Source: Thermoproteota archaeon
GTDB lineage: Archaea; Thermoproteota; Thermoprotei; Gearchaeales; Gearchaeaceae
DNA: 64,000 bases
Direction: 5' to 3'
Assembly (NCBI GenBank): GCA_032249315.1
Contig: JAVVGB010000001.1
Span: 4,072-68,071 of the forward strand
Part shown: positions 3,332 to 64,000 of the stretch, piece after piece
Layout: each line of letters opens with the position of its first letter
Numbering within the stretch: position 1 is the stretch's first letter
Notes under the pieces: model-generated
The model's database searches: none
What the model saw: the letters and a program-made list of their open reading frames with translations, nothing else
What the model was told of the DNA's origin: nothing
Translations under genes and position numbers: made by a program

Positions 3332-4457
3332 CTACTAAACGTATTATATTATATTTGAAAATGCCTTAAAAGTTTAACATTTTAAATAATTTTTATAACT
3401 TTTTACAAAAAATTGAGAAACTTACTTCTCAGCATGTGAAGTGACAATATTGGAAATCATACGAGAATAATAATGATAATAGGACTTACTTCCTTACGCC
3501 TTGAAAGGCAAGGTTTTATTTTGTAAAAGTTTTGTTCCTTAATCTATAACTCTTATTTTTGAATAAAATCAATGATGCACTGTTCCTCTAAAGGAACTTT
3601 GTCGTTTTTTCGTAATAAAAATAAATGATCTTGCATTAACTTCCAGTCAAAAAATAATAAGCATTCCTAAGATAACACTAACAAAAATCGCACTAAGAAT
3701 CTCCTTTAATTTATCTTCTTTATTGAGTTTGGGCGTTTTAACTAAAGTGTTATGAATACCAGAGTTAGTATCCCCCTACCTACTGTGTGAGCTTTACCGC
3801 ACGAATTCCTGAATAAAATTACGAAGGCCGGATTTTAATGTTTTAATTAGTGAAACAAAAATTTGGTCTCACATAGGATTCTATTGTCTCCATGGCAGGC
3901 CTTATCCAATTTCATCCAATTAGCAGGATATAGTTTATTGTCTCTAAAAATCTTGAATAAATCGATTGAAAATTACAGTTAAGTGAAGGTGAAAAAAATA
4001 GGGTCTGTAAGGGAATTGGCGAGGAATACAATGAAATAATGGGAATTAGATGGAAATTTAGTGCTACTGGCAGCTGAGCTAAGCTTAGCAGGATCCTAAG
4101 CGGCCAGGACCTTTTCGGTTCATTTAATCGCAAAATTATACGTTAATTTGAAATAAGGTTTTACGTAAACTCTGATAAAAATTGAAGTAACCCACAAAGC
4201 ATATAGTTTTGTTAGTTCTACATAAGCCTTTAAACACCAAAAATATGTTATACCTCAGCTAATAAGGATCTTTCACTCCAGCAAGCTCAAACGATTTAAT
4301 CCTCACTTTGCAACCCACACATTTTCCGCACGGTTTCTCCAAATTATTATAATAGATTTTCATTTTTATTCTCGGCTTAATTTTAACTTTTCTATTTAAA
4401 ACATATAGCTAATTTAGCGATAATCTTATATGCTAATTAAATTTTAATAGCCTGGTT

Positions 4458-4838
4458 TTAATACGGCTTTTTTATCTCAACTACTTTTACTCTCTCAAAA
4501 TCTTTTATATTTTTTGTAAGAATTGCACATTTCTCTTTAAAACCTACAGCTGCAATAATAGCATCTAGTAAGCTAATTCCATATTCTCTTCTAAATTTGG
4601 CTGCAATTTTTGCTATTTCATTATCCAACTCTACTTTTCTGAAAATTTTCAGCAACTTTTCTATCATTTCCCTTTCTTTAGCATCCTCGCATCTTTTTGC
4701 AGATAAAAGTTCTGCTTCAGTAATAACTGAGATTATTCCTTCAACTTCTTTTCTTTCTACTTTTTCTACTAGAATCCTTGCATCTGTGATATTTCTTAAA
4801 TGGTCAATTAAAATGCTAGTATCAAAAACATACTTCAT
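4458..4838 (-). CDS. vapC: PIN-domain ribonuclease toxin VapC
   Basis: 126 aa starting MKYVFDTSILIDHL, with the acidic PIN residues (D6, E42, D92…). Its start overlaps the upstream small gene by 4 nt. Confidence 0.7.
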   Translation of the reverse strand: MKYVFDTSILIDHLRNITDARILVEKVERKEVEGIISVITEAELLSAKRCEDAKEREMIEKLLKIFRKVELDNEIAKIAAKFRREYGISLLDAIIAAVGFKEKCAILTKNIKDFERVKVVEIKKPY

Positions 4839-5098
4839 ATTCCTAATCTTTTAAGTCTTTTTTCACTTTCTTTTCTCAATTTTCTAACATATCCCTCACT
4901 GGAAATTTTCCAAGTTTTCCAAAGTCCAAAAGTTTCCTCTGCTATTGTTTTTTTGGGCGACTCTAACCCTATTACTACTTTCTTTAATTTCTCATTTATT
5001 AAATATGATATTTTTTTAGTTGAGCCAAATCTCATTATTGATTCCTCAACCAACTTTTTATATATCTCATCATCCAAATTTATGGTTGTTTTAACCAT
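4835..5098 (-). CDS. vapB: VapB-type antitoxin (small DNA-binding protein) paired with VapC
   Basis: 87-aa ORF directly upstream of VapC with an ATGA-type overlap, the typical toxin-antitoxin operon organisation. Confidence 0.5.
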   Translation of the reverse strand: MVKTTINLDDEIYKKLVEESIMRFGSTKKISYLINEKLKKVVIGLESPKKTIAEETFGLWKTWKISSEGYVRKLRKESEKRLKRLGI

Positions 5099-5756
5099 AT
5101 AAAAATATTGTTACTAACAATATAAAAACTCTACGGTTATATGTTTTTAGCTCTCGAATCTTTTGCCAACTGTTCAAAAATTGTTATAATTGAATAAATC
5201 TGAATAAAACAACATCATCTTGAGTGAAATTTTAACTAAAAGATTATTCAATATTCCAAAATTTTCTTCGTTAGCTTAAGAAATTGCCAAATATTCACCA
5301 CAAACCTTTAAAGCTTATATACTCTTATCAATAGAGCTCATTCAATCATCATAGACTAATTTCTTTTTCTAACTATTCTATCTTCTTTTCCTATATGATT
5401 CCAAAATAAATCAGTAAAAATGTAATGAAAGGCTAAACCTTTCCATTTTCCATATCTACTTTCAGACAAGTTGATTTTTTTGTGCTGGGACTAACTTCTT
5501 ATTAAATAAAATTCTCGAGAGCTTTTTCTGTTCCCATGCTCTTCCCTTCAAATCAAATGTATCAGACCTTTAAAGATAATCTCACAAGATTATTTATGCG
5601 GTAGCCTGGCACTACCTGTTAAAATAGAATAAAGTTGAATAAACAATAGTAACATTGTTATAATGATAATCAGGAATAATTGGGCATACCTCTTAAATCA
5701 TAGTTAGAATTTCTATTAAGAATAAGGAGGCAAAAGCTTTAAATACTTTAATCGAA

Positions 5757-5828
5757 TGGACCGGGAGGGATTCGAACCCTCGACCTTCCGCGTGCGAAGC
5801 GGACATTCTACCACTGAACTACCGGCCC
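5757..5828 (-). tRNA. tRNA-Ala (anticodon CGC)
   Basis: Acceptor GGGCCGG/CCGGTCC with the G3:U70 Ala identity pair. Anticodon stem TCCGC/GCGGA, loop TTCGCAC, T-arm GAGGGTTCGAATCCCTC. Confidence 0.9.
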
Positions 5829-32786: not shown

Positions 32787-32826
32787 AATAAACTTAAAAT
32801 TTTATTTTAATAAATAATAATTGGAA

Positions 32827-32913
32827 GCCCCAGTAGCATAGCTTGGTAATGCGCTTGCCTCGTAAATATATCGGGAAAGCAAGAGATCGCGGGTTCAAAT
32901 CCCGCCTGGGGCT
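32827..32913 (+). tRNA. intron-containing tRNA, probably tRNA-Thr (anticodon CGT) with a ~13-nt intron after position 37
   Basis: Acceptor GCCCCAG/CTGGGGC, D-stem GCAT/ATGC, anticodon stem CTTGC/GCAAG enclosing a 20-nt loop CTCGTAAATATATCGGGAAA, T-arm GCGGGTTCAAATCCCGC. EndA is encoded in the window. Confidence 0.65.
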
Positions 32914-32975
32914 TAAAATTTACCATTATAACAATAGTTATATTTATATTTTGGTTGAAATACTATTAAGGAAGT

Positions 32976-38392: not shown

Positions 38393-38476
38393 GCAGGGGT
38401 TCCCTAGCCAGGTCAAAGGGGTGGGGCTTAGGACCCTATGGCGAAGGCCTTCGTGGGTTCAAATCCCACCCCCTGC
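38393..38476 (+). tRNA. tRNA-Leu (anticodon TAG), long variable arm
   Basis: Acceptor GCAGGGG/CCCCTGC, anticodon loop CTTAGGA, variable arm ATGGCGAAGGCCTTC, T-arm GTGGGTTCAAATCCCAC. Confidence 0.9.
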
Positions 38477-38625
38477 ATATTTATTTCGAATAATTTTCAT
38501 CTTGTTTTTTTGGTTAATATTTCGTTGATTTATTTAAAAGTAGAATAATTTTCATATTTTCAGTCCAAATATCACATTATTTTTAAAAAACTTAGAAAAT
38601 AATCGGTTAATATTTCAAATACGAT

Positions 38626-50092: not shown

Positions 50093-50914
50093 ATGACTAA
50101 GAACAAGCTTACAATTGATCACGTATTGCCAAGATTAAAAGAATTATTTGAAAAGTTTGAAAATGTTGAAACAGCAATATTATTTGGTTCCATAGCAAGA
50201 AATAAGTTCAGTGTTCATGACATAGATATAGCCCTAAAATTAAATAAAGAAGACCTGCTAGAAACTGGATACATTATAACCCAGATAGCAAAAACACTAC
50301 ATATCAATGAAGATCATATAGATATTGTGCTCTTAAACCAAGCAAATCCAATAACGCTCTCAAAAATACTCAAAGAAGGTATCATAATCAAAGCACAACC
50401 TAATATTATTGAACAACTCTTACAAAAAGCAGAGCAAGCGCCAGATGCCATAATGGAGATTGAGCATTGGGCAACTTTTGATCCAAAATTAGATAAAATG
50501 GTCATTATATCAAGAACAGAAGAAATCAGAAGAAACACAGAATTCATTAAAAGCGAAATACTATCGAAGAAAATCGAAGACTTAAATTACAAAGATATGC
50601 TAGCCCTAGAAAGAGCTATGCAAAAAATCATAGAAGCTATGCTTGATATATGCAGACATCTAGTTTCAGTTTACTTGCTTGATTTGGCTGAAAGTTATGA
50701 AGAATATCCACAAAAACTAACAAGAGCAAACAAAATGTCTAAAGACTTAGCAGAATATATAACAAGACTTGTAGGCTTAAGAAACATGCTTGTGAATCAA
50801 TACTTAGAAATTAGTAACGAAATTCTTTATCAAACAGCTAATGAAACAACAGAAAAAATAGTAAGCAAATTCATTGAATGGACAAAAACTATTGATTTAA
50901 ATTACGGTCGTTAA
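50093..50914 (+). CDS. two-domain protein: minimal nucleotidyltransferase (MntA-like) fused to a HEPN/DUF86-like domain
   Basis: The N-terminus has GSIARNKFSVHDIDIAL (G[SG]x9-13DxD NTase motif). The C-terminus has LVGLRNMLVNQY at the position of the HepT RNxxxHxY motif, with His replaced by Asn. Codon usage is more C-rich than the neighbouring genes. Confidence 0.55.
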   Translation: MTKNKLTIDHVLPRLKELFEKFENVETAILFGSIARNKFSVHDIDIALKLNKEDLLETGYIITQIAKTLHINEDHIDIVLLNQANPITLSKILKEGIIIKAQPNIIEQLLQKAEQAPDAIMEIEHWATFDPKLDKMVIISRTEEIRRNTEFIKSEILSKKIEDLNYKDMLALERAMQKIIEAMLDICRHLVSVYLLDLAESYEEYPQKLTRANKMSKDLAEYITRLVGLRNMLVNQYLEISNEILYQTANETTEKIVSKFIEWTKTIDLNYGR

Positions 50915-52192: not shown

Positions 52193-52903
52193 ATGAAAAC
52201 ATTAATCGATTACGTTCTAAATAAACAGTCTTTTAAACATTTCATAAAAAATCCATCTGATCTCAGATTTATAATTCATTATTTAGAGAGAGAGCACAAA
52301 TTGGTCAAATTAACAGGAGAAGAAAAGGTGAAAATTAAAAGAGTACTGAATGAAGCTGAAAATATAAGAGAATATATTACTGATAAACTCTCAAAAATTC
52401 CTGCTTTTCATGGAGCTATGGTTTCTCCTTTAGAAGGACCAATAATTTATACAATAATTAGATGTCTTAAACCTAGAATAGTAATTGAAACGGGAGTAGC
52501 TAACGGAGCCTCTTCAACTTTCATATTAAGCGCTCTTGAAAAGAATAATTTAGGTAAACTTTATAGCATAGATTTGCCAAGTAAAGACCTTTTATTAAAG
52601 GAAGAAATAGGATGGCTAGTACCACAATCCTTAAGGCATAGATGGGAACTGATCATTGGCGACTCAAGAATTGTTTTACCAAAATTGCTAGCTGAGCTAG
52701 GTCATGTGGATATATTTCTTCACGACTCATTACATACACTAGAACATATACTTTTCGAGTTAAAAGAGTCTTATAATTACATACCAAAAGGAGGATTTTT
52801 AATTGTAGATGATATAAACGTCGATTGGATAAGAATAGTTAATCAAAAAATTAAAACAGACAAATTTGAACTATTCTATGATTTGCTTGTTTTAAAGAAA
52901 TAA
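52193..52903 (+). CDS. class I SAM-dependent methyltransferase, TylF/CmcI (macrocin-O-MT / cephalosporin hydroxylase) family
   Basis: 236 aa with IVIETGVANGASSTFI (motif I) and …GDSRIVLPKL…. Confidence 0.6.
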   Translation: MKTLIDYVLNKQSFKHFIKNPSDLRFIIHYLEREHKLVKLTGEEKVKIKRVLNEAENIREYITDKLSKIPAFHGAMVSPLEGPIIYTIIRCLKPRIVIETGVANGASSTFILSALEKNNLGKLYSIDLPSKDLLLKEEIGWLVPQSLRHRWELIIGDSRIVLPKLLAELGHVDIFLHDSLHTLEHILFELKESYNYIPKGGFLIVDDINVDWIRIVNQKIKTDKFELFYDLLVLKK

Positions 52904-52939
52904 TGTTATTGAAAATACTGGAATTTTGAGTAGTACAAA

Positions 52940-54079
52940 TTGATAGTTTTAAGATTGATAGGAGAATTTGGAAGCGGATTCACAGGCCCTTCAAAGCAAG
53001 CATATCTTTTAACCAAAGGTTTGGAAAATAAAGGAATTAGCTCAATAATTTTAACCTTTAAAAAGGGATCAGTAAATTTAAAGAGAAGTAAGATAATTGA
53101 ATATAAGCCATTTTTTGGCGCGGGCCATTACAAGCTATCTTTGAAAATGTTGCTAGATTCTTTAAGGAAAGATTACAATATAATTCATGTTCATGGCTAC
53201 AGGAATTTCCAGACCGATGCTGGGGCTATATCCTCTTTCCTTAGAAAAGTACCTTTAATAATTACAACGCATGGAACTGTTAGAGGCTATGAATTCTTGG
53301 ATTTAGATTTGAAATCAAGATTGCCAAATATAATCTATGATGCAATAACAATGAAGTTTTCTTTAAAAATAGCAAAGATAATCGTTGCTACGTCAAAAAG
53401 TGAAGCGAAAGAGTTAATTAGTTTTGGAATTCCAGAAAATAAAATAAAAATAATACCAAACGGTATAGAATTTCCAAATATTAATATAAAGAAGAAAGAT
53501 AAAGGAACAATAAATTTACTTACTGTAAGCAGATTAACTTATAAAAATAATTTAGAAATGGCAATTAAAGCTTTTTATGAAGCTTATAAAAGAAATAATA
53601 AGCTTCGTTATATAATAGTCGGAGATGTGATTCCTAGCAGATATGGAAAAGAAGAGAAAGGATACAAAGAAATGCTAATTAAATTATGCAAGGATTTAGG
53701 TTTGCAAGACAAAGTGATCTTCAAAGGATGGCTAAGCGGTGAAGAATTATGGAAAGTTTACTGCAATTCAGATTTATTTATATGGAGCTCAAGATATGAT
53801 AACTTTGCACATGCATTAGTTGAAGCAGCTTACTTTAAATTACCGATTATAAGTACGCCTGTTGGTATAGTTGAGGAGCTTATAGGAAAAGAAGGAGGCT
53901 TCATTGTAAGTCATGAAAATTATAAGGAAATGAGTGAAAGAATAATTGAAATTGTAGAAAATCCTAAACTAATGATAGAGATGGGTGAGCATAATCATAA
54001 GCAATCTTTAAATTATAGCTATGAAAGAATGGTGGGAGAATATTACAAATTATATAAAGAAGTATTGCAATATAAGTAA
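52940..54079 (+). CDS. GT4-family glycosyltransferase
   Basis: 379 aa with EAAYFKLPIISTPVGIVEELI (E-x7-E-type C-terminal motif). Confidence 0.7.
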   Translation: MIVLRLIGEFGSGFTGPSKQAYLLTKGLENKGISSIILTFKKGSVNLKRSKIIEYKPFFGAGHYKLSLKMLLDSLRKDYNIIHVHGYRNFQTDAGAISSFLRKVPLIITTHGTVRGYEFLDLDLKSRLPNIIYDAITMKFSLKIAKIIVATSKSEAKELISFGIPENKIKIIPNGIEFPNINIKKKDKGTINLLTVSRLTYKNNLEMAIKAFYEAYKRNNKLRYIIVGDVIPSRYGKEEKGYKEMLIKLCKDLGLQDKVIFKGWLSGEELWKVYCNSDLFIWSSRYDNFAHALVEAAYFKLPIISTPVGIVEELIGKEGGFIVSHENYKEMSERIIEIVENPKLMIEMGEHNHKQSLNYSYERMVGEYYKLYKEVLQYK

Positions 54080-54092
54080 GAACAACAAAACA

Positions 54093-54452
54093 ATGGGCCA
54101 CATTTACGTTACAGCTAAGTTGGGAGATCCGCTCAAGCAAAAGGTTAGAGATGTTAAAATGCTTGTTGATACCGGTGCAACATATCCATGTATCCCTAAA
54201 TGGCTGGCCGAAGCGTTAGGTTTGAGATTGGAATTTAAGACTATGGTCACATTAGCTGATGGAAGGATGGTTGAGGCATGGTATACGACAGCTTATCTAG
54301 AAATTATGGGAAAAGGTGATTTGATTCCAATTAGAGTTTTCGATGTTGATGAGCCATTACTTGAAGTCTTTGCACTTGAAGCCTTAGGATTAGCTGTGGA
54401 TCCTGTGTCAGGAGAAATTAAGCCTACGAGAACCTTCATAGCAAGGGCTTAA
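54093..54452 (+). CDS. retropepsin-like (clan AA) aspartic protease, single domain (~119 aa from M25)
   Basis: LVDTGAT is the D-T/S-G-A catalytic motif, followed by a flap and a C-terminal strand. GC is about 42% against about 30% in flanking genes. The ORF-track start at 54021 lies inside the upstream GT4 gene; ATG 54093 is more plausible. Confidence 0.55.
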   Translation: MGHIYVTAKLGDPLKQKVRDVKMLVDTGATYPCIPKWLAEALGLRLEFKTMVTLADGRMVEAWYTTAYLEIMGKGDLIPIRVFDVDEPLLEVFALEALGLAVDPVSGEIKPTRTFIARA

Positions 54453-54503
54453 TTAACAGTCACGGCGAGTTGGATGCTTTCTTTACCATAAGAGTCAATT
54501 AAC

Positions 54504-54752
54504 ATGTTAAGGAGGAATATTGTGAATACTAATAAGATTAAGCTCTTATTTGCGCCCGGATTAGAAGTTGAGTTCGTTGATAGAGAAAGAGCTATAAAAC
54601 AGGTGGAAGAGTTTGCTGAGAAAGGTACTAGATTCCCGATAGTTGTCTTCGGGCCTGAAGGTTGTGGCAAAACCGCATGGTTAAAACAAGCTACTTTTAT
54701 TTTACGGGAACTTGGTTTTGAAGCTATTTATATTGATCCATTACATACGTAA
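54504..54752 (+). pseudogene. truncated N-terminal fragment (82 aa) duplicating the downstream AAA ATPase
   Basis: KLLFAPGLEVEFVDRERAIKQVEEFAEKGTRFPIVVFGPEGCGKTAWLKQATFILRELGFEAIYIDPL aligns residue-for-residue with residues 11-78 of the 54861..55892 protein, then stops. Confidence 0.5.
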
Positions 54753-54860
54753 GTACAAGAAGGGATGGAAAATATATGCAAAGATATAAAAAAATTAGGA
54801 ATACCATTCATAATATATTCATGAGACCCCTAAAATAGTAACAGTGCAGCATAAATTAGA

Positions 54861-55892
54861 ATGCAACCCTTGAGTAGCAATGTGAAAAGAATAAGGCTAC
54901 GCTTTGATGATCTTCAAATTGAATTTACAGCTAGAGACAGGGCGCTTAGTCAAGTATCTGAATGGGCTGATAGAGGCACCGGAAATCCAGTAGTAATCTT
55001 CGGACCTGAGGGTTGCGGAAAGTCTGCCTTCTTGCTACAAGCAACAGCAATGCTTAAAGAGATGGGCTACGATGTCTTCTACCTACACCCTCTGGACAAA
55101 ATCTTCGAAGCAGAGATAGAGGAGATAGACGTGAAAAGAGCGTTTCTAGACTTTGTCCAAAGAGCGGCAGCAGAGGATGCTTTGGGCAGAGTAGCATGGG
55201 CAGTATTCGATTTCGTACGCGAAGGATTAAAGAGAAGAAAAAGGAAAGTGGCCGTAATAGCTGATGACGTGTTTCAAGCAATAGGACTCAATAGAGCGGC
55301 AATTTATGTAAAAGGTCTGCTGAACATGATAGAACACCCATTCTACAACTACGAAAAAATGGTTGTGCTAGTAGCGACCAGCGAGGGCTTAACTCGCTAT
55401 GAAATCGGCAGGCACAGGTGGGCTTATATATTACCCATGTGGAACATGAACAGGGAAGAGTTCGAGCAACTCTACCAGAAAATACCAGGCCCGAAACCAT
55501 CACTTGAAGAGGCATGGAAGCTAACAGGAGGAAATCCTTACATGCTACAGGAGCTGTACAGAAAGCAGTGGAACGCGGATGATACGGTAACAGGTATCAT
55601 CGAAGTAAAATCTTTGAGAGACTTCATCTTTGCACTGACGAAAGAAGAGAGGGCATGGCTGATAGAGGCTCTAGATGATCCTGACACACTCTATACAAGA
55701 GAGAGGTTGCCTCTACTGCACAAGTTGGTTGAAATAAATCTTGCAGTAAGTAGTATGTACAGCAGAATTCCGAATCTTTGGATAGACATACCACCTCCCG
55801 AAAAGGACCTAGAGCTGGGCATAGGAAAATATGCTTCATGGCAAACACCCCTTCATCGAGAAGCCATAAGAAGGATACTTATGAAAGTATGA
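54861..55892 (+). CDS. archaeal-type AAA ATPase (Arch_ATPase/PF01637-like)
   Basis: 343 aa with Walker A GPEGCGKS, Walker B VAVIADDVFQ and an alpha-helical C-terminal part. GC is about 47%, the highest in the window. Confidence 0.6.
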   Translation: MQPLSSNVKRIRLRFDDLQIEFTARDRALSQVSEWADRGTGNPVVIFGPEGCGKSAFLLQATAMLKEMGYDVFYLHPLDKIFEAEIEEIDVKRAFLDFVQRAAAEDALGRVAWAVFDFVREGLKRRKRKVAVIADDVFQAIGLNRAAIYVKGLLNMIEHPFYNYEKMVVLVATSEGLTRYEIGRHRWAYILPMWNMNREEFEQLYQKIPGPKPSLEEAWKLTGGNPYMLQELYRKQWNADDTVTGIIEVKSLRDFIFALTKEERAWLIEALDDPDTLYTRERLPLLHKLVEINLAVSSMYSRIPNLWIDIPPPEKDLELGIGKYASWQTPLHREAIRRILMKV

Positions 55893-56019
55893 AACCTATA
55901 GCGCTTAGGAGCATTATACCAATCCGCCCTCATCCTCAGATAAAATATAGGTAATCATGTATTGTTGTTCTAAATAGAGATAACTAAAATTGATCAAAAA
56001 TAAGTAGAGAAATAGCAGA

Positions 56020-57843
56020 ATGTGCGGAATCTGTGGAATAATAGGAGAACCTAATAAATATCTTTTAAAATTAATGTGCAACAATTTAATTCATCGAGGA
56101 CCTGATAGCGAAGGATATTATATTGATGATCATGTTGGCTTGGGAGTAAGAAGGTTGAGGATAATTGATCTGAAAACCGGAGACCAGCCCATTCATAATG
56201 AAGATGAAACAGTTTGGGTTGTTTTCAATGGCGAAATTTATAACTTCATTGAATTAAGAAACGAGTTGAAATCAAGACATAAATTCTATACAAATACAGA
56301 TACAGAGGTATTAGTCCATTTGTGGGAAGAAGAAAAAGAGAAAATGCTGAATAGAATAATTGGAATGTTCGCTTTTGCAATATATGATTCAAAGGAAAAA
56401 ACTGTTTTCATAGCGAGAGATAGATTTGGAGAGAAGCCTTTGTATTATACCTTTGTTAATGATAACTTCATATTTGCTTCTGAGCTAAGAGCAATTATCA
56501 ATTGCATTGAAAATCCTGAAATTAATCCTAATGCAATAGCAAGTTATCTAGCTTTCTTTTACAATCATTTAGAAGAAAGTTTTATAAAAAAAGTCTATAG
56601 ATTAAACCCTGCAAGCTACATTTTATATTCTTTGAAAGATAAAAAGGCTACTTTCAATTCTTATTGGGATTTGAACTTTGAGGAAAATAATGATATAGAT
56701 TTGGATACCGCATTAAAAATTCTTGATGCAAACTTAAAAGGTATAGTAAAGAATACTTTGATAAGCGATGTTCCCTTAGGAGTTTTGTTAAGCGGAGGCG
56801 TTGATTCAAGCGTTATAGCTAAGGTTGCTTCAGAATATTCAAGACTTAAAACAATGCATGTTACTGGTAGCGAAGAAGAAGTTAAATTTGCTGAGGAAGT
56901 TGTAAACTTAATAAAAAGTGATCATAAAACAATACATGTAAAAACAGATTTCATGAAAGATTTTGATCAAATTACTATTGCAATAGATGAACCTGTTGCT
57001 GATCCTTCAATTATTCCAACATTTTACATATGTAGAGAAATAAAGAAGGAAGTAACGGTTGCTTTAACAGGAGAAGGAGGAGATGAAATGTTCTGGGGAT
57101 ATCCTTGGATAAATATAAATGATATTCTTAGCAAATGGTTTAGCTTGCCTAAGTTCATTAGGAAAATTATAATTTCTTTAGGAAGCCATTTAAATAAAAA
57201 TTTAGCAGGAACATTTCAAGACTTAAAGCGATATGAAAAATATAGATATTATTCATTGGATAACGCAGGTAAAAGATTGCTAAGACTTTCTCATTTCAAT
57301 AAAGAAGAGTTGAAAAATATAATTGTAAATAGCTTCGAAGATCCTTTCATTGAATATGAAAAGATGTTAAGAAAAGGTGATGAGCATAAAAGCGCTGCAT
57401 ACGTTACCATTAAGAAAGTTTTGCCGAATGATTTCTTGCATAAGGATGATAGAATTAGCATGAAAAACTCGCTAGAGCTAAGAGCACCATTTTTAAACCA
57501 TATTTTAATGCAAAAAATATTTAGCTTTCAAAATGAAATGAAAATAAATCATGGAATAGATAAATATTTATTAAAAGTATATGCAATTAAATATTTAAAA
57601 ATACCTAAACATATAATTTTAAGAAAAAAAGTTGGATTTAGCATATCTTTAAAGAAATATCATAAAGATTTTATAAATAAAATTGATGAATTAAGTTATT
57701 TAATGAAGGAATTAAATTTAAATTATAATGAAATAAAGAAATATTATGAATATTATTCTTCCTATGAATACACAAATAGATTATTTTCAATTGCTTTACT
57801 ATTGAATTGGTTCAAATTAACATTTAAACACATTTTTACTTAA
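56020..57843 (+). CDS. asnB: asparagine synthetase (glutamine-hydrolysing) AsnB-family amidotransferase
   Basis: 607 aa with an N-terminal Ntn Cys2 (MCGICGIIG), a PP-loop SGGVDSS and a C-terminal synthetase domain. Confidence 0.85.
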   Translation: MCGICGIIGEPNKYLLKLMCNNLIHRGPDSEGYYIDDHVGLGVRRLRIIDLKTGDQPIHNEDETVWVVFNGEIYNFIELRNELKSRHKFYTNTDTEVLVHLWEEEKEKMLNRIIGMFAFAIYDSKEKTVFIARDRFGEKPLYYTFVNDNFIFASELRAIINCIENPEINPNAIASYLAFFYNHLEESFIKKVYRLNPASYILYSLKDKKATFNSYWDLNFEENNDIDLDTALKILDANLKGIVKNTLISDVPLGVLLSGGVDSSVIAKVASEYSRLKTMHVTGSEEEVKFAEEVVNLIKSDHKTIHVKTDFMKDFDQITIAIDEPVADPSIIPTFYICREIKKEVTVALTGEGGDEMFWGYPWININDILSKWFSLPKFIRKIIISLGSHLNKNLAGTFQDLKRYEKYRYYSLDNAGKRLLRLSHFNKEELKNIIVNSFEDPFIEYEKMLRKGDEHKSAAYVTIKKVLPNDFLHKDDRISMKNSLELRAPFLNHILMQKIFSFQNEMKINHGIDKYLLKVYAIKYLKIPKHIILRKKVGFSISLKKYHKDFINKIDELSYLMKELNLNYNEIKKYYEYYSSYEYTNRLFSIALLLNWFKLTFKHIFT

Positions 57844-57869
57844 AAACTAAAGAATATTTAAAATAATTT

Positions 57870-59018
57870 ATGGAAGAAGCAATTAAAGATTTAAAGAGAC
57901 TTCGTATTGCAATAACCCACCTAAATTTAAGTTGGTATCGCATACCATTATTTAAAATACTACAAGATGAAATAAGATCAGACATAATTATATTAAATTC
58001 TAAAGAGTTGCCCACATATGGTAAAGCAGATTTTGATGCTATAGAATATTTATTAAAAAAATACAAAATAAGTTATAAAACTGAAAAAGTAATTGGTAAT
58101 AACAATTTTTACTTTAATCCTTTCTTATTAAGAACTCTGTTAAATTATGACATTATTGTATGGGGCGAACCCATTTTATCATTGAATAGCCTTTTATTCA
58201 TTCCTACTCTAAAACTATTTCGCAAAAAAGCAGTATTGTGGGTAGATGATTGGGGTTATAAAAAACATTTGATCAGAAAAATATTTGAGCCTTTTGTTCG
58301 TCTAATATACTTAATAGCTGATGGCATTTTAGTTCATGGTATCAAGCATTATTTATATTTTTTAAAACTAGGTGTTGATAAGAGAAAAATATTTTTCATA
58401 GGAAATGCATCTACAATATTTAGAGAATTTTCGTCTAAAGACGAGATTGAAAGAGTAAGAAGGATATTAAATACAAAGCATATTATTTTGTACGTAGGCG
58501 GCCTAATTAAGAGAAAAAATGTAGACAAAATTATTAAGGCTATTTATAATTTAAGAAAAAAAAATTTGGATGTTGGTCTATTGATAGTAGGACAAGGACC
58601 TGAAATTAAAAGTTTATATAACCTGGTATGGAAGATGAATTTAGCTTATCATATAAAATTTTTAGGTTGGATACCTTTTCATAGATTAGCCAACTATTAT
58701 TTAGCTGCTGACGTTTTTGTTTTTCCAGCAGAAAATGAACCATGGGGTTTAGTAATAAATGAAGCCTTAGAAGCAGGAATACCTATAGTAACCACAAAAA
58801 GTGTAGGAGCAGAAGAACTAATAGTCAATAATATTAATGGTGTATTAATAAATAAAATTGATGAAAAAAATATAGCAGATGGAATTACTAAGTGTCTATC
58901 AAATAAAATCGATATAAATAATAATATAATATTAAAAATAAAAAAGAAATATAATTATAAAACTATGGCAAATTTATTTATTAATGCACTTCTCAAAATC
59001 TATTATAATAAATGTTAA
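57870..59018 (+). CDS. GT4-family glycosyltransferase (divergent N-domain)
   Basis: 382 aa with a canonical GT-B C-domain (LYVGGLIKRKN…FVFPAENEPWGLVINEALEAGIPIVTT). Confidence 0.6.
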   Translation: MEEAIKDLKRLRIAITHLNLSWYRIPLFKILQDEIRSDIIILNSKELPTYGKADFDAIEYLLKKYKISYKTEKVIGNNNFYFNPFLLRTLLNYDIIVWGEPILSLNSLLFIPTLKLFRKKAVLWVDDWGYKKHLIRKIFEPFVRLIYLIADGILVHGIKHYLYFLKLGVDKRKIFFIGNASTIFREFSSKDEIERVRRILNTKHIILYVGGLIKRKNVDKIIKAIYNLRKKNLDVGLLIVGQGPEIKSLYNLVWKMNLAYHIKFLGWIPFHRLANYYLAADVFVFPAENEPWGLVINEALEAGIPIVTTKSVGAEELIVNNINGVLINKIDEKNIADGITKCLSNKIDINNNIILKIKKKYNYKTMANLFINALLKIYYNKC

Positions 59019-63284: not shown

Positions 63285-64000
63285 ATGAAAAAATTAATTA
63301 TAAAAGCCTTAGACCTAATTAATTATAAAAACCTTAAATACATATTATACTTACTTATAGGAATATCCATAATTTTAACTATTTATAACTTATTTAATTT
63401 AACTGCAATCGGAATATTTTTCTTAATGAATACTTTTGCATCAGTATTAGGAATATTTTCATATACTATTATAAAATCAAACAATAAAAACAAAATAGAT
63501 CCAATAATTAATTATAAAAAAATTTACATAACAATTATAATATTTTTTGTTTTATTATCATTTTCCTCATTATTAGCATACTTTAGTATAACTTACAGAT
63601 CATTACTATATTTCATATTTTTATCATTTACTTTCTTTATTATTGCTTTCCAAATATTATTTTTAGATCTTAATAAAAAATTAGCTAAAATTATTTTATT
63701 TGAAATAATTTTAATTGTTATAATTAATAAAATTTCAATTTATTTTATTAATTATGAAATAGCTTGGTGGGATTCATTTTTCCATTATACTGTAATTTAT
63801 AATATATTTAACACAAACCAATTGCCACCAGCTGAAACTAACTGGGGAGCATTTGGTCTATTTCATGCTTTCAATACAATAGTTTTAAAAATATTATTCA
63901 ACGAAACAAATATAAATTATATTTATATCGATCTTTTAATAATATTTGTTATTATTATATTTGCTTATTATATTATATACCGAATATCAAAAAGCTTTAA
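63285..64000 (+). CDS. 3'-partial polytopic membrane protein (candidate oligosaccharide polymerase, flippase or oligosaccharyltransferase of the glycan locus)
   Basis: ATG at 63285, then a continuous open frame to the window end (≥238 aa) with more than six predicted TM helices (MKKLIIKALDLINYKNLKYILYLLIGISIILTIY…). Confidence 0.45.
   Translation, partial: MKKLIIKALDLINYKNLKYILYLLIGISIILTIYNLFNLTAIGIFFLMNTFASVLGIFSYTIIKSNNKNKIDPIINYKKIYITIIIFFVLLSFSSLLAYFSITYRSLLYFIFLSFTFFIIAFQILFLDLNKKLAKIILFEIILIVIINKISIYFINYEIAWWDSFFHYTVIYNIFNTNQLPPAETNWGAFGLFHAFNTIVLKILFNETNINYIYIDLLIIFVIIIFAYYIIYRISKSF

Follow-up and report, generated by a model that had tools for sequence, protein, structure and literature searches.

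We describe here a short islet of elevated G+C content (GC) in a 64-kb stretch of contig JAVVGB010000001.1 from a Thermoproteota archaeon (hereafter the window). The islet lies between a glycosyltransferase (GT4) gene and an asparagine synthase (asnB) gene of a glycan locus, and carries a retropepsin-like gene, an 82-aa fragment of an ATPase of family PF01637 (ATPase_2) and an intact 343-aa ATPase of the same family. It is probably a horizontally acquired accessory islet of toxin–antitoxin (TA) and ATPase genes that is now eroding in the glycan locus of a hot-spring archaeon of ~28% GC. Relatives show a fuller form, in which a retropepsin-like gene is followed by ATPase_2 paralog #1, a HEPN toxin gene, an MNT antitoxin gene and ATPase_2 paralog #2. 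In the window allele, illegitimate recombination across a 3-bp microhomology has removed three quarters of ATPase#1 together with the HEPN–MNT pair. The toxin module is gone from the window, where ATPase#2 would be an orphan survivor and the retropepsin-like gene a facultative passenger. The host is uncultured, and proteins identical to those encoded here occur in NCBI records of metagenome-assembled genomes. In kind, the islet is ordinary: it is a product of genome erosion and not a new system. The value of the window lies chiefly in a correction, since what appears to be a truncated duplicate is a deletion scar and what appears to be an active novel module is decaying cargo. It also offers a clean, base-resolved case of how imported TA/ATPase islets erode inside archaeal glycan loci.

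The deletion can be read directly by comparison with close relatives. Twelve homologous loci on metagenome or metagenome-assembled-genome contigs (L001-L009, L115, L118 and L119; loci are numbered in this way throughout) share the GT4–asnB locus at ~90-92% DNA identity. In these relatives the order is protease, full-length ATPase#1 (343-349 aa), HEPN (PF05168), MNT (NTP_transf_2/Polbeta) and ATPase#2 (340 aa), with the HEPN gene starting 64 bp after ATPase#1. Using blastn, the window matches L005 up to 54747 (L005:…6233) and resumes at 54745 (L005:7884…). The 1,650 bp of L005:6234-7883 are missing from the window as a clean gap, and the flanks and the rest of the islet align at ~90-92% identity. 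At the junction, the left reference reads TTACATA/AAGAC and the right reference AAAGATA/CGTAAG (slash, breakpoint); the window reads TTACATACGTAAG, and the TAA stop of the ATPase#1 stump is created there, two codons past the breakpoint. The short peptide encoded by the MNT remnant downstream, RKYKKGWKIYAKI followed by a stop, is identical to the C-terminus of L005 ORF 7680-7928, and a tail homologous to this remnant sits upstream of the ATPase in L184. Because the window shows both an MNT tail and an ATA-microhomology junction, the long form is ancestral and the window allele derived. The same deletion allele was found in at least two independent ENA assemblies, among them ERZ27247211 and ERZ27249314 (contigs with the allele: L181, L182 and two more), and is therefore not an assembly artefact.

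An earlier note on this DNA had described the 82-aa open reading frame (ORF) as a residue-by-residue copy of the N-terminus of the next gene, a truncated duplicate suggestive of recombination or successive insertion. Two PF01637 ORFs do stand in tandem on one strand, and tandem arrays of this ATPase family with many fragments are frequent elsewhere (for example in L090 and L157). Nevertheless, we consider tandem duplication followed by truncation, or successive insertions, very improbable. The fragment and the intact gene are only 51% identical (37/73 residues) and are therefore paralog types of ancient divergence; L089 and L091, too, contain both types. The fragment scores 75.8 bits against PF01637 over profile positions 1-59 only, and it is ~92% identical in nucleotides to the 5' end of a gene of 343-349 aa that is full-length in L001, L005, L006, L007 and L009. 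Together with the junction and the MNT tail, both directly visible, these data refute a recent-duplicate origin: the 82-aa ORF is what the 1,650-bp deletion has left of a separate paralog. Over its 80 codons, the stump has a ratio of non-synonymous to synonymous substitution rates (dN/dS) of 0.15; non-synonymous changes are thus not in excess, as would fit a recent deletion. The value for the fragment against L002 was disregarded as unreliable, an indel having shifted the two sequences out of register. The coordinates of these and the other features of the islet are given in Table 1.

Table 1. Features of the islet and its two flanking genes, in window coordinates (GC3, GC at third codon positions).
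Feature	Position	Strand	Remarks
GT4 glycosyltransferase gene, left flank	52940..54079	+	Pfam PF00534/PF13439; GC 0.301, GC3 0.247 (host composition)
Left copy of 14-nt inverted repeat, AGAACAACAAAACA, at islet edge	54079..54092	+	Probably a chance match
Retropepsin-like (clan AA) gene, 119 aa	54093..54452	+	Best start ATG 54093; PF13650/PF13975 above cut-off
Stump of ATPase_2 paralog #1, 82-aa ORF	54504..54752	+	~80 authentic codons including Walker A, then junction-derived Thr and stop
Deletion junction, 3-bp ATA microhomology	54745..54747	.	Joins ATPase#1 codon ~80 to 3' end of MNT gene
MNT antitoxin gene remnant, last 13 codons and stop	54748..54789	+	Out of frame with the stump
AT-rich region upstream of ATPase#2	54790..54860	+	Retained intact; collinear with relatives from 54745 on, ~90-91% identity
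ATPase_2 paralog #2, 343 aa, intact	54861..55892	+	Walker A GPEGCGKS, Walker B IADD, helical/winged-helix-like C-terminus
Right copy of inverted 14-mer (AGAACAACAATACA on minus strand)	55958..55971	-	Probably a chance match; relatives read TGTCTTATTGTTCT
Asparagine synthase gene (asnB-type), right flank	56020..57843	+	Pfam PF00733/PF13537; GC 0.282

Erosion is not confined to the window and has taken various routes among the strains. In addition to the 1.65-kb deletion described above, L002 and L003 have a split ATPase#1, L005 has an MNT gene cut to 82 aa, and L001 and L003 have lost the protease gene but keep their ATPases. ATPase#2 is the only islet gene that is intact in all relatives compared. 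Its dN/dS is 0.15, against 0.12-0.21 in the flanking genes, showing that it is under purifying selection. The antisense ORFs inside ATPase#2 overlap this conserved, selected gene and are most simply explained as composition artefacts, as the earlier note had judged.

Base composition sets the islet apart from its surroundings. The GC of 54090-55940 is 0.420, compared to 0.281±0.020 in 32 non-overlapping background intervals (z 6.8), and the highest GC among all sliding 1,851-bp intervals of the 64 kb begins at 54089. The strong rise seen by the earlier note is thus real, and its borders (GT4 ending at 54079, asnB starting at 56020), its three ORFs and their family calls are correct. A uniform 42-48% is not: GC is 0.417 in the protease gene, 0.373 in the 82-aa ORF, 0.287 in the spacer 54753-54860 and 0.446 in ATPase#2. 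Codon usage is similarly uneven. GC3 is 0.437 in ATPase#2, compared to 0.177±0.054 across the window's 40 long ORFs (200 aa or more), of which ATPase#2 is the highest; it is also the only strong outlier among the islet ORFs. By part, GC3 is 0.44 for ATPase#2, 0.28-0.33 for the protease, 0.29 for HEPN and 0.25-0.30 for ATPase#1. Given this heterogeneity, the parts of the islet could have arrived at separate times.

Every close relative (~91% identical) spanning the GT4–asnB site has the islet, and its composition there is equally unlike that of the host (ATPase#2 of L005: GC 0.44, GC3 0.428). The same genes at the same place with host-like GC, which would have argued against a foreign block, were thus not found. 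Flanks and islet diverge by similar amounts among these relatives, in blastn identity and in synonymous divergence (dS), showing that they have been vertically co-inherited since acquisition. At the orthologous site of more distant relatives (L176-L180) the islet is absent: in L179 and L180 (asnB 49% identical) a GT4 gene ends 84 bp before asnB, and the slot is filled in L176-L178 (asnB 88% identical) by a 613-aa protein that matches no Pfam family. Using tblastn with all five islet proteins, no islet remnants were detected in the island-free relatives (nothing at E<0.1). The ATPase family itself is found mainly in high-GC Thermoproteota: median GC is 0.575 across 86 ATPase-family loci, only 2 of which fall below 0.35, and the nearest non-syntenic homologs of ATPase#2 have a GC3 of 0.59 (L184, 78% identity) and 0.84 (L183, 72% identity). 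Absence from the distant relatives and the high-GC home of the family together support a foreign origin. The islet is best read as having been imported, ahead of the divergence of the sampled strains, from a Thermoproteota donor of higher GC.

Among the usual marks of a genomic island, the islet shows atypical base composition and codon usage and is missing from the orthologous site of relatives, and it lacks mobility genes, flanking direct repeats and a tRNA target. The gene tables of the relatives list no integrase or transposase within ±8 kb, the nearest tRNA (38393-38477) is 15 kb away, and no more than chance-level matches came from a search of 53000-57000 for direct repeats or for duplication of a target site. 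A viral or plasmid origin was considered and rejected, since a scan of viral contigs yielded only a 32-residue P-loop match and PHROGs contained nothing for the islet proteins. Together with the lack of conserved terminal repeats and of PADLOC matches, these results leave the small mobile module proposed in the earlier note unsupported.

One specific form of mobility deserves separate mention, namely that of a discrete cassette, transposon-like or integrative, that would have inserted between GT4 and asnB and have 14-nt terminal inverted repeats at its ends. The 14-mer AGAACAACAAWACA occurs twice in the 64 kb, in inverted orientation and exactly at the islet edges, with 0.10 matches expected and 2 of 100 shuffles reaching two; the island-free sites and the foreign composition of the islet would also suit a mobile element. 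However, alignment of the relatives carrying the same islet shows that the pair is not conserved, the right arm being different (Table 1) and the left arm variable, so that a near-perfect repeat exists in the window only and is degraded elsewhere. In the same 4 kb there are 15 inverted pairs that match about as well, other ATPase loci do not have the motif, and the missing target-site duplication, mobility genes and viral relatives speak against a cassette as well. We therefore rejected the 14-mer as a terminal inverted repeat and give such a cassette hardly any credence.

The window islet has much in common with the TA-rich genomic islets known from surface-glycan loci, including atypical composition, presence/absence polymorphism, TA genes, rapid turnover by insertion and deletion, and a mosaic glycosylation cluster as its setting. 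Unlike genomic islets and TA-rich variable regions, it has no integrase, tRNA target or direct repeats. Two unrelated contigs (L089:1772-7556 and L091:2215-6023) contain islets in which the two ATPase paralog types bracket TA-like genes (RHH, PaREP1, PIN) beside GT2/GT4 genes. The association of such islets with glycan loci is thus not unique to the window.

The retropepsin-like gene shows signs of decay. Its product scores 34.5 bits against PF13650 (cut-off 24.3) and 32.2 bits against PF13975 (cut-off 28.2), and falls below the NCBIfam cut-offs of TIGR03698 (clan_AA_DTGF; 37.8 versus 57.35 bits) and TIGR02281 (clan_AA_DTGA; 25.1 versus 57.95 bits). A profile of the family (A1) has as its top match in the PDB the structure of ApRick (5c9d, 7.8e-5), followed by Ddi1. 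Established hallmarks of retropepsins are a DTG triad and a downstream hydrophobic-hydrophobic-Gly motif (I84-I85-G86 in HIV-1 protease), and both motifs align to ApRick in the family profile. The window allele keeps the catalytic Asp-Thr/Ser-Gly triad (D26-T27-G28-A29, DTGA). In the window and L181 the second motif reads LLE, the glycine of LLG being lost through G91E. Since G91 is conserved in at least 90% of the family and glutamate is found solely in this allele, the substitution probably impairs catalysis. Other alleles carry substitutions in the catalytic signature: D26N (P0122, P0125), G28S (L005/P0123), G28D (L115) and G28R (P0156). The gene also has a dN/dS of 0.48 (measured against L005), compared to the 0.12-0.21 of the flanking genes. 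Within the species group of the window, the protease looks dispensable or decaying. Like the prokaryotic retropepsins of the Rickettsia APRc/ApRick and Ddi1 types, the window protein has just one retropepsin domain, which bears the DTG signature; it differs from them in having no membrane or UBL domains. By analogy, it may also be compared to the ~100-aa retropepsin of the Saci_1895 type in Sulfolobales, being similarly small and set among crenarchaeal conflict-type genes. Proteins of this type are reported beside type III CRISPR loci (PMC3973734), whereas no CRISPR locus lies near the window protease.

ATPase#2 is an unambiguous member of its family, at 217.6 bits against PF01637 (cut-off 33.2) over the complete profile (1-225/225), with Walker A and Walker B motifs on a P-loop NTPase fold like that of the solved members. 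DUF234, for which the earlier note had recommended a search, was absent from the Pfam matches of the islet proteins at E<=0.1, and the ATPase_2 + DUF234 architecture is therefore not present here. The solved PF01637 proteins, P. abyssi PABY2304 (2qen) and S. solfataricus SSO1545 (2fna), share only 13-14% sequence identity with the window ATPase, which belongs to a highly conserved multi-paralog subfamily (59-89% identity) of hot-spring Thermoproteota with 75% mean column identity (alignment A4). Our literature search found no published biological function for the solved proteins or for this subfamily. Its paralogs stand in tandem arrays that often include fragments (L090, L096, L131-L133, L157); in L090:3131-7524, at least nine consecutive same-strand ATPase_2 ORFs or fragments attest to heavy tandem amplification and pseudogenisation.

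After the PF01637 structures, the nearest folds are those of STAND immune NTPases. Compared to STAND proteins such as NB-ARC NLRs, CED-4 and bacterial Avs3/Avs5, the window ATPase measures only 343 aa, has no fused sensor repeats or effector domain, scores under the Pfam cut-offs of the nSTAND families, and has no PADLOC or NCBIfam Avs membership. Similarly, the defence models of PADLOC-DB 2.0 gave no meaningful islet match (best E 0.006-0.05 over P-loop stretches, and none for the protease), and a known anti-phage defence system was accordingly rejected.

The joint presence of a retropepsin-like gene and an ATPase raises the question of a dedicated system, for example a defence-like one with the ATPase as sensor and the protease as effector or regulator, of which the window would keep a functional core in the protease and ATPase#2. 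To our reading this is unlikely. We counted adjacency from both sides. From the protease side, an ATPase adjoins 1 of 80 genome loci of relatives that are 31-92% identical and come from archaea and bacteria, and that one (L009) belongs to the same species group. The 127 ORFs flanking these loci comprise 103 singletons, and their Pfam content is a housekeeping mix; across the 80 loci no conserved partner gene recurs, save occasional tandem protease paralogs. In L011, L067, L077 and L083 a second retropepsin-like paralog is directly adjacent. From the ATPase side, 110 full-length genes in 46 lineages (clusters at 80% identity) could be assessed. A retropepsin-like ORF stands directly upstream on the same strand in 19 of the 110, that is in 3 of the 46 lineages (the L089 group, 11/12; ATPase#1 of the window group, 7/8; and L160), with spacings from an overlap of 28 bp to a gap of 105 bp. 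The proteases of these ATPase-linked lineages are 25-38% identical to the window protease. In a further lineage (L132, L140, L147) the protease lies ~560 bp upstream of the ATPase, and two tandem protease→ATPase cassettes are present in L095. These arrangements, the retropepsins near type III CRISPR loci of Sulfolobales and the STAND-like fold speak for a dedicated system. On the other hand, 43 of the 46 lineages and 79 of the 80 protease loci lack an adjacent partner, the protease of the window group is paired not with ATPase#2 but with ATPase#1, the gene destroyed here, and ATPases persist in L001 and L003 without the protease. The independent substitutions in the catalytic motifs and the elevated dN/dS argue against selection on catalysis, and PADLOC offers no match. 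Taken together, 3 of 46 lineages and 1 of 80 loci indicate that protease–ATPase adjacency is recurrent but facultative. The earlier note knew of no described system pairing the two; a literature search on PF01637, Arch_ATPase, COG1672 and retropepsins with TA or defence likewise did not find the pairing, the only related item being the CRISPR-associated retropepsin (PMC3973734), and the facultative recurrence qualifies that statement.

HEPN/MNT pairs are an established type VII TA system in which MNT AMPylates the HEPN RNase (PMC7641770, PMC11586414). The relatives carry such a pair (HepT/MntA; PF05168 and NTP_transf_2/Polbeta) between the two ATPases, with the genes adjacent in L001-L003; in the window no adjacent pair is left and the module is deleted save for the 13-codon MNT tail. 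We did not find an HEPN–MNT pair embedded between ATPase_2 paralogs described in the literature. The MNT→ATPase#2 arrangement recurs in L184 in a different GC background. Across the ATPase subfamily, the commonest non-ATPase neighbour is PaREP1/PaREP8 (PF05942; 38 + 17 members at 25 + 15 loci). These proteins have been placed in the HEPN-T clade (PMC3710099), and PaREP1 was reported not to be associated with MNT, its antitoxin remaining unidentified (PMC3632139). One lineage carries ATPase→PaREP1 pairs ~75 bp apart that are tandemly repeated. In L131, L132, L133, L140, L147, L149 and L151, two-gene cassettes of ATPase_2 (338 aa) and PaREP1 (~180 aa), likewise ~75 bp apart, form two to three tandem repeats (for example L140:1221-2861 and 4099-5757), sometimes with a retropepsin-like gene between cassettes.

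We hypothesize that the ATPases may be STAND/Orc-like NTP-dependent switches with a DNA-binding-type C-terminus, which in their home lineages would typically be followed by an HEPN-superfamily RNase gene (HEPN–MNT or PaREP1), and that they probably act with HEPN-type toxins as addiction or conflict modules. More specifically, this PF01637 subfamily could provide the central NTPase of a crenarchaeal conflict system not yet described, its usual partner being an HEPN RNase encoded directly downstream (PaREP1, or HEPN with MNT) and a retropepsin directly upstream being optional; we consider this improbable. If true, the window would hold a broken copy of that system, and the long-missing partner of PaREP1 would be supplied. 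To our knowledge, PF01637 ATPases and PaREP1 proteins, though abundant in hyperthermophilic archaea, have no assigned biology. The novelty that remains is at the level of families, namely the association of ATPase_2 with HEPN or PaREP1 and sometimes with a retropepsin, which we did not find described in the literature.

Several observations weigh against an acquired and now eroding TA/ATPase islet. Its arrival is not accounted for by a mobility gene, an att-like repeat or an adjacent tRNA. Because the parts differ in GC3, a single acquisition event is not established. Orthology between the GT4 gene of the window and the 'GT4' gene beside asnB in L179 is uncertain, and the left flank is mosaic: compared to the island-free L176, nucleotide identity is 72% over GT4 (52938-53994) and 86% over asnB (56020-57825). 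This difference within a mosaic glycan locus would place a recombination boundary at or near the islet. An ancestral islet that was later lost in L176 retains some small probability. Furthermore, the role proposed for the ATPases beside HEPN-type toxins is read from gene neighbourhood, where the link by lineage is partial (in 9 of 54 lineage clusters the ATPase has a PaREP1-like gene no more than 1 kb away), and the putative loss of protease activity through G91E is drawn from motif conservation.

Other features of the window were recorded in passing. A 273-aa fused MNT–HEPN gene (Polbeta and HepT-like; 50093-50914, + strand) lies 3 kb upstream in the same glycan locus; it is conserved in relatives (238-273 aa) and constitutes a second TA-type gene among the glycosyltransferases. 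Fused MNT-HEPN systems have recently been characterised (PMC13000451). Between 52172 and 52937, a Methyltransf_24 gene (52193-52903) is polymorphic by insertion or deletion: the window, L002 and L181/L182 carry it, and L001, L005 and L006 lack it and have the two GT4 genes abutting. Outside the species group, asnB (56020-57843) has homologs of at most 66% identity, the next ones at 36-52% and many of them from bacterial candidate phyla (Omnitrophota, Aminicenantia); the asnB gene of the glycan locus may thus also be foreign. The lowest GC in the stretch profiled is 0.17-0.18 at 57450-57900, which covers the asnB 3' end and the spacer after it, and 0.14-0.20 at 63300-63900, close to where the window ends. 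Finally, an 89-nt tRNA-Ala(TGC) call at 32826-32914 is consistent with an intron-containing archaeal tRNA.

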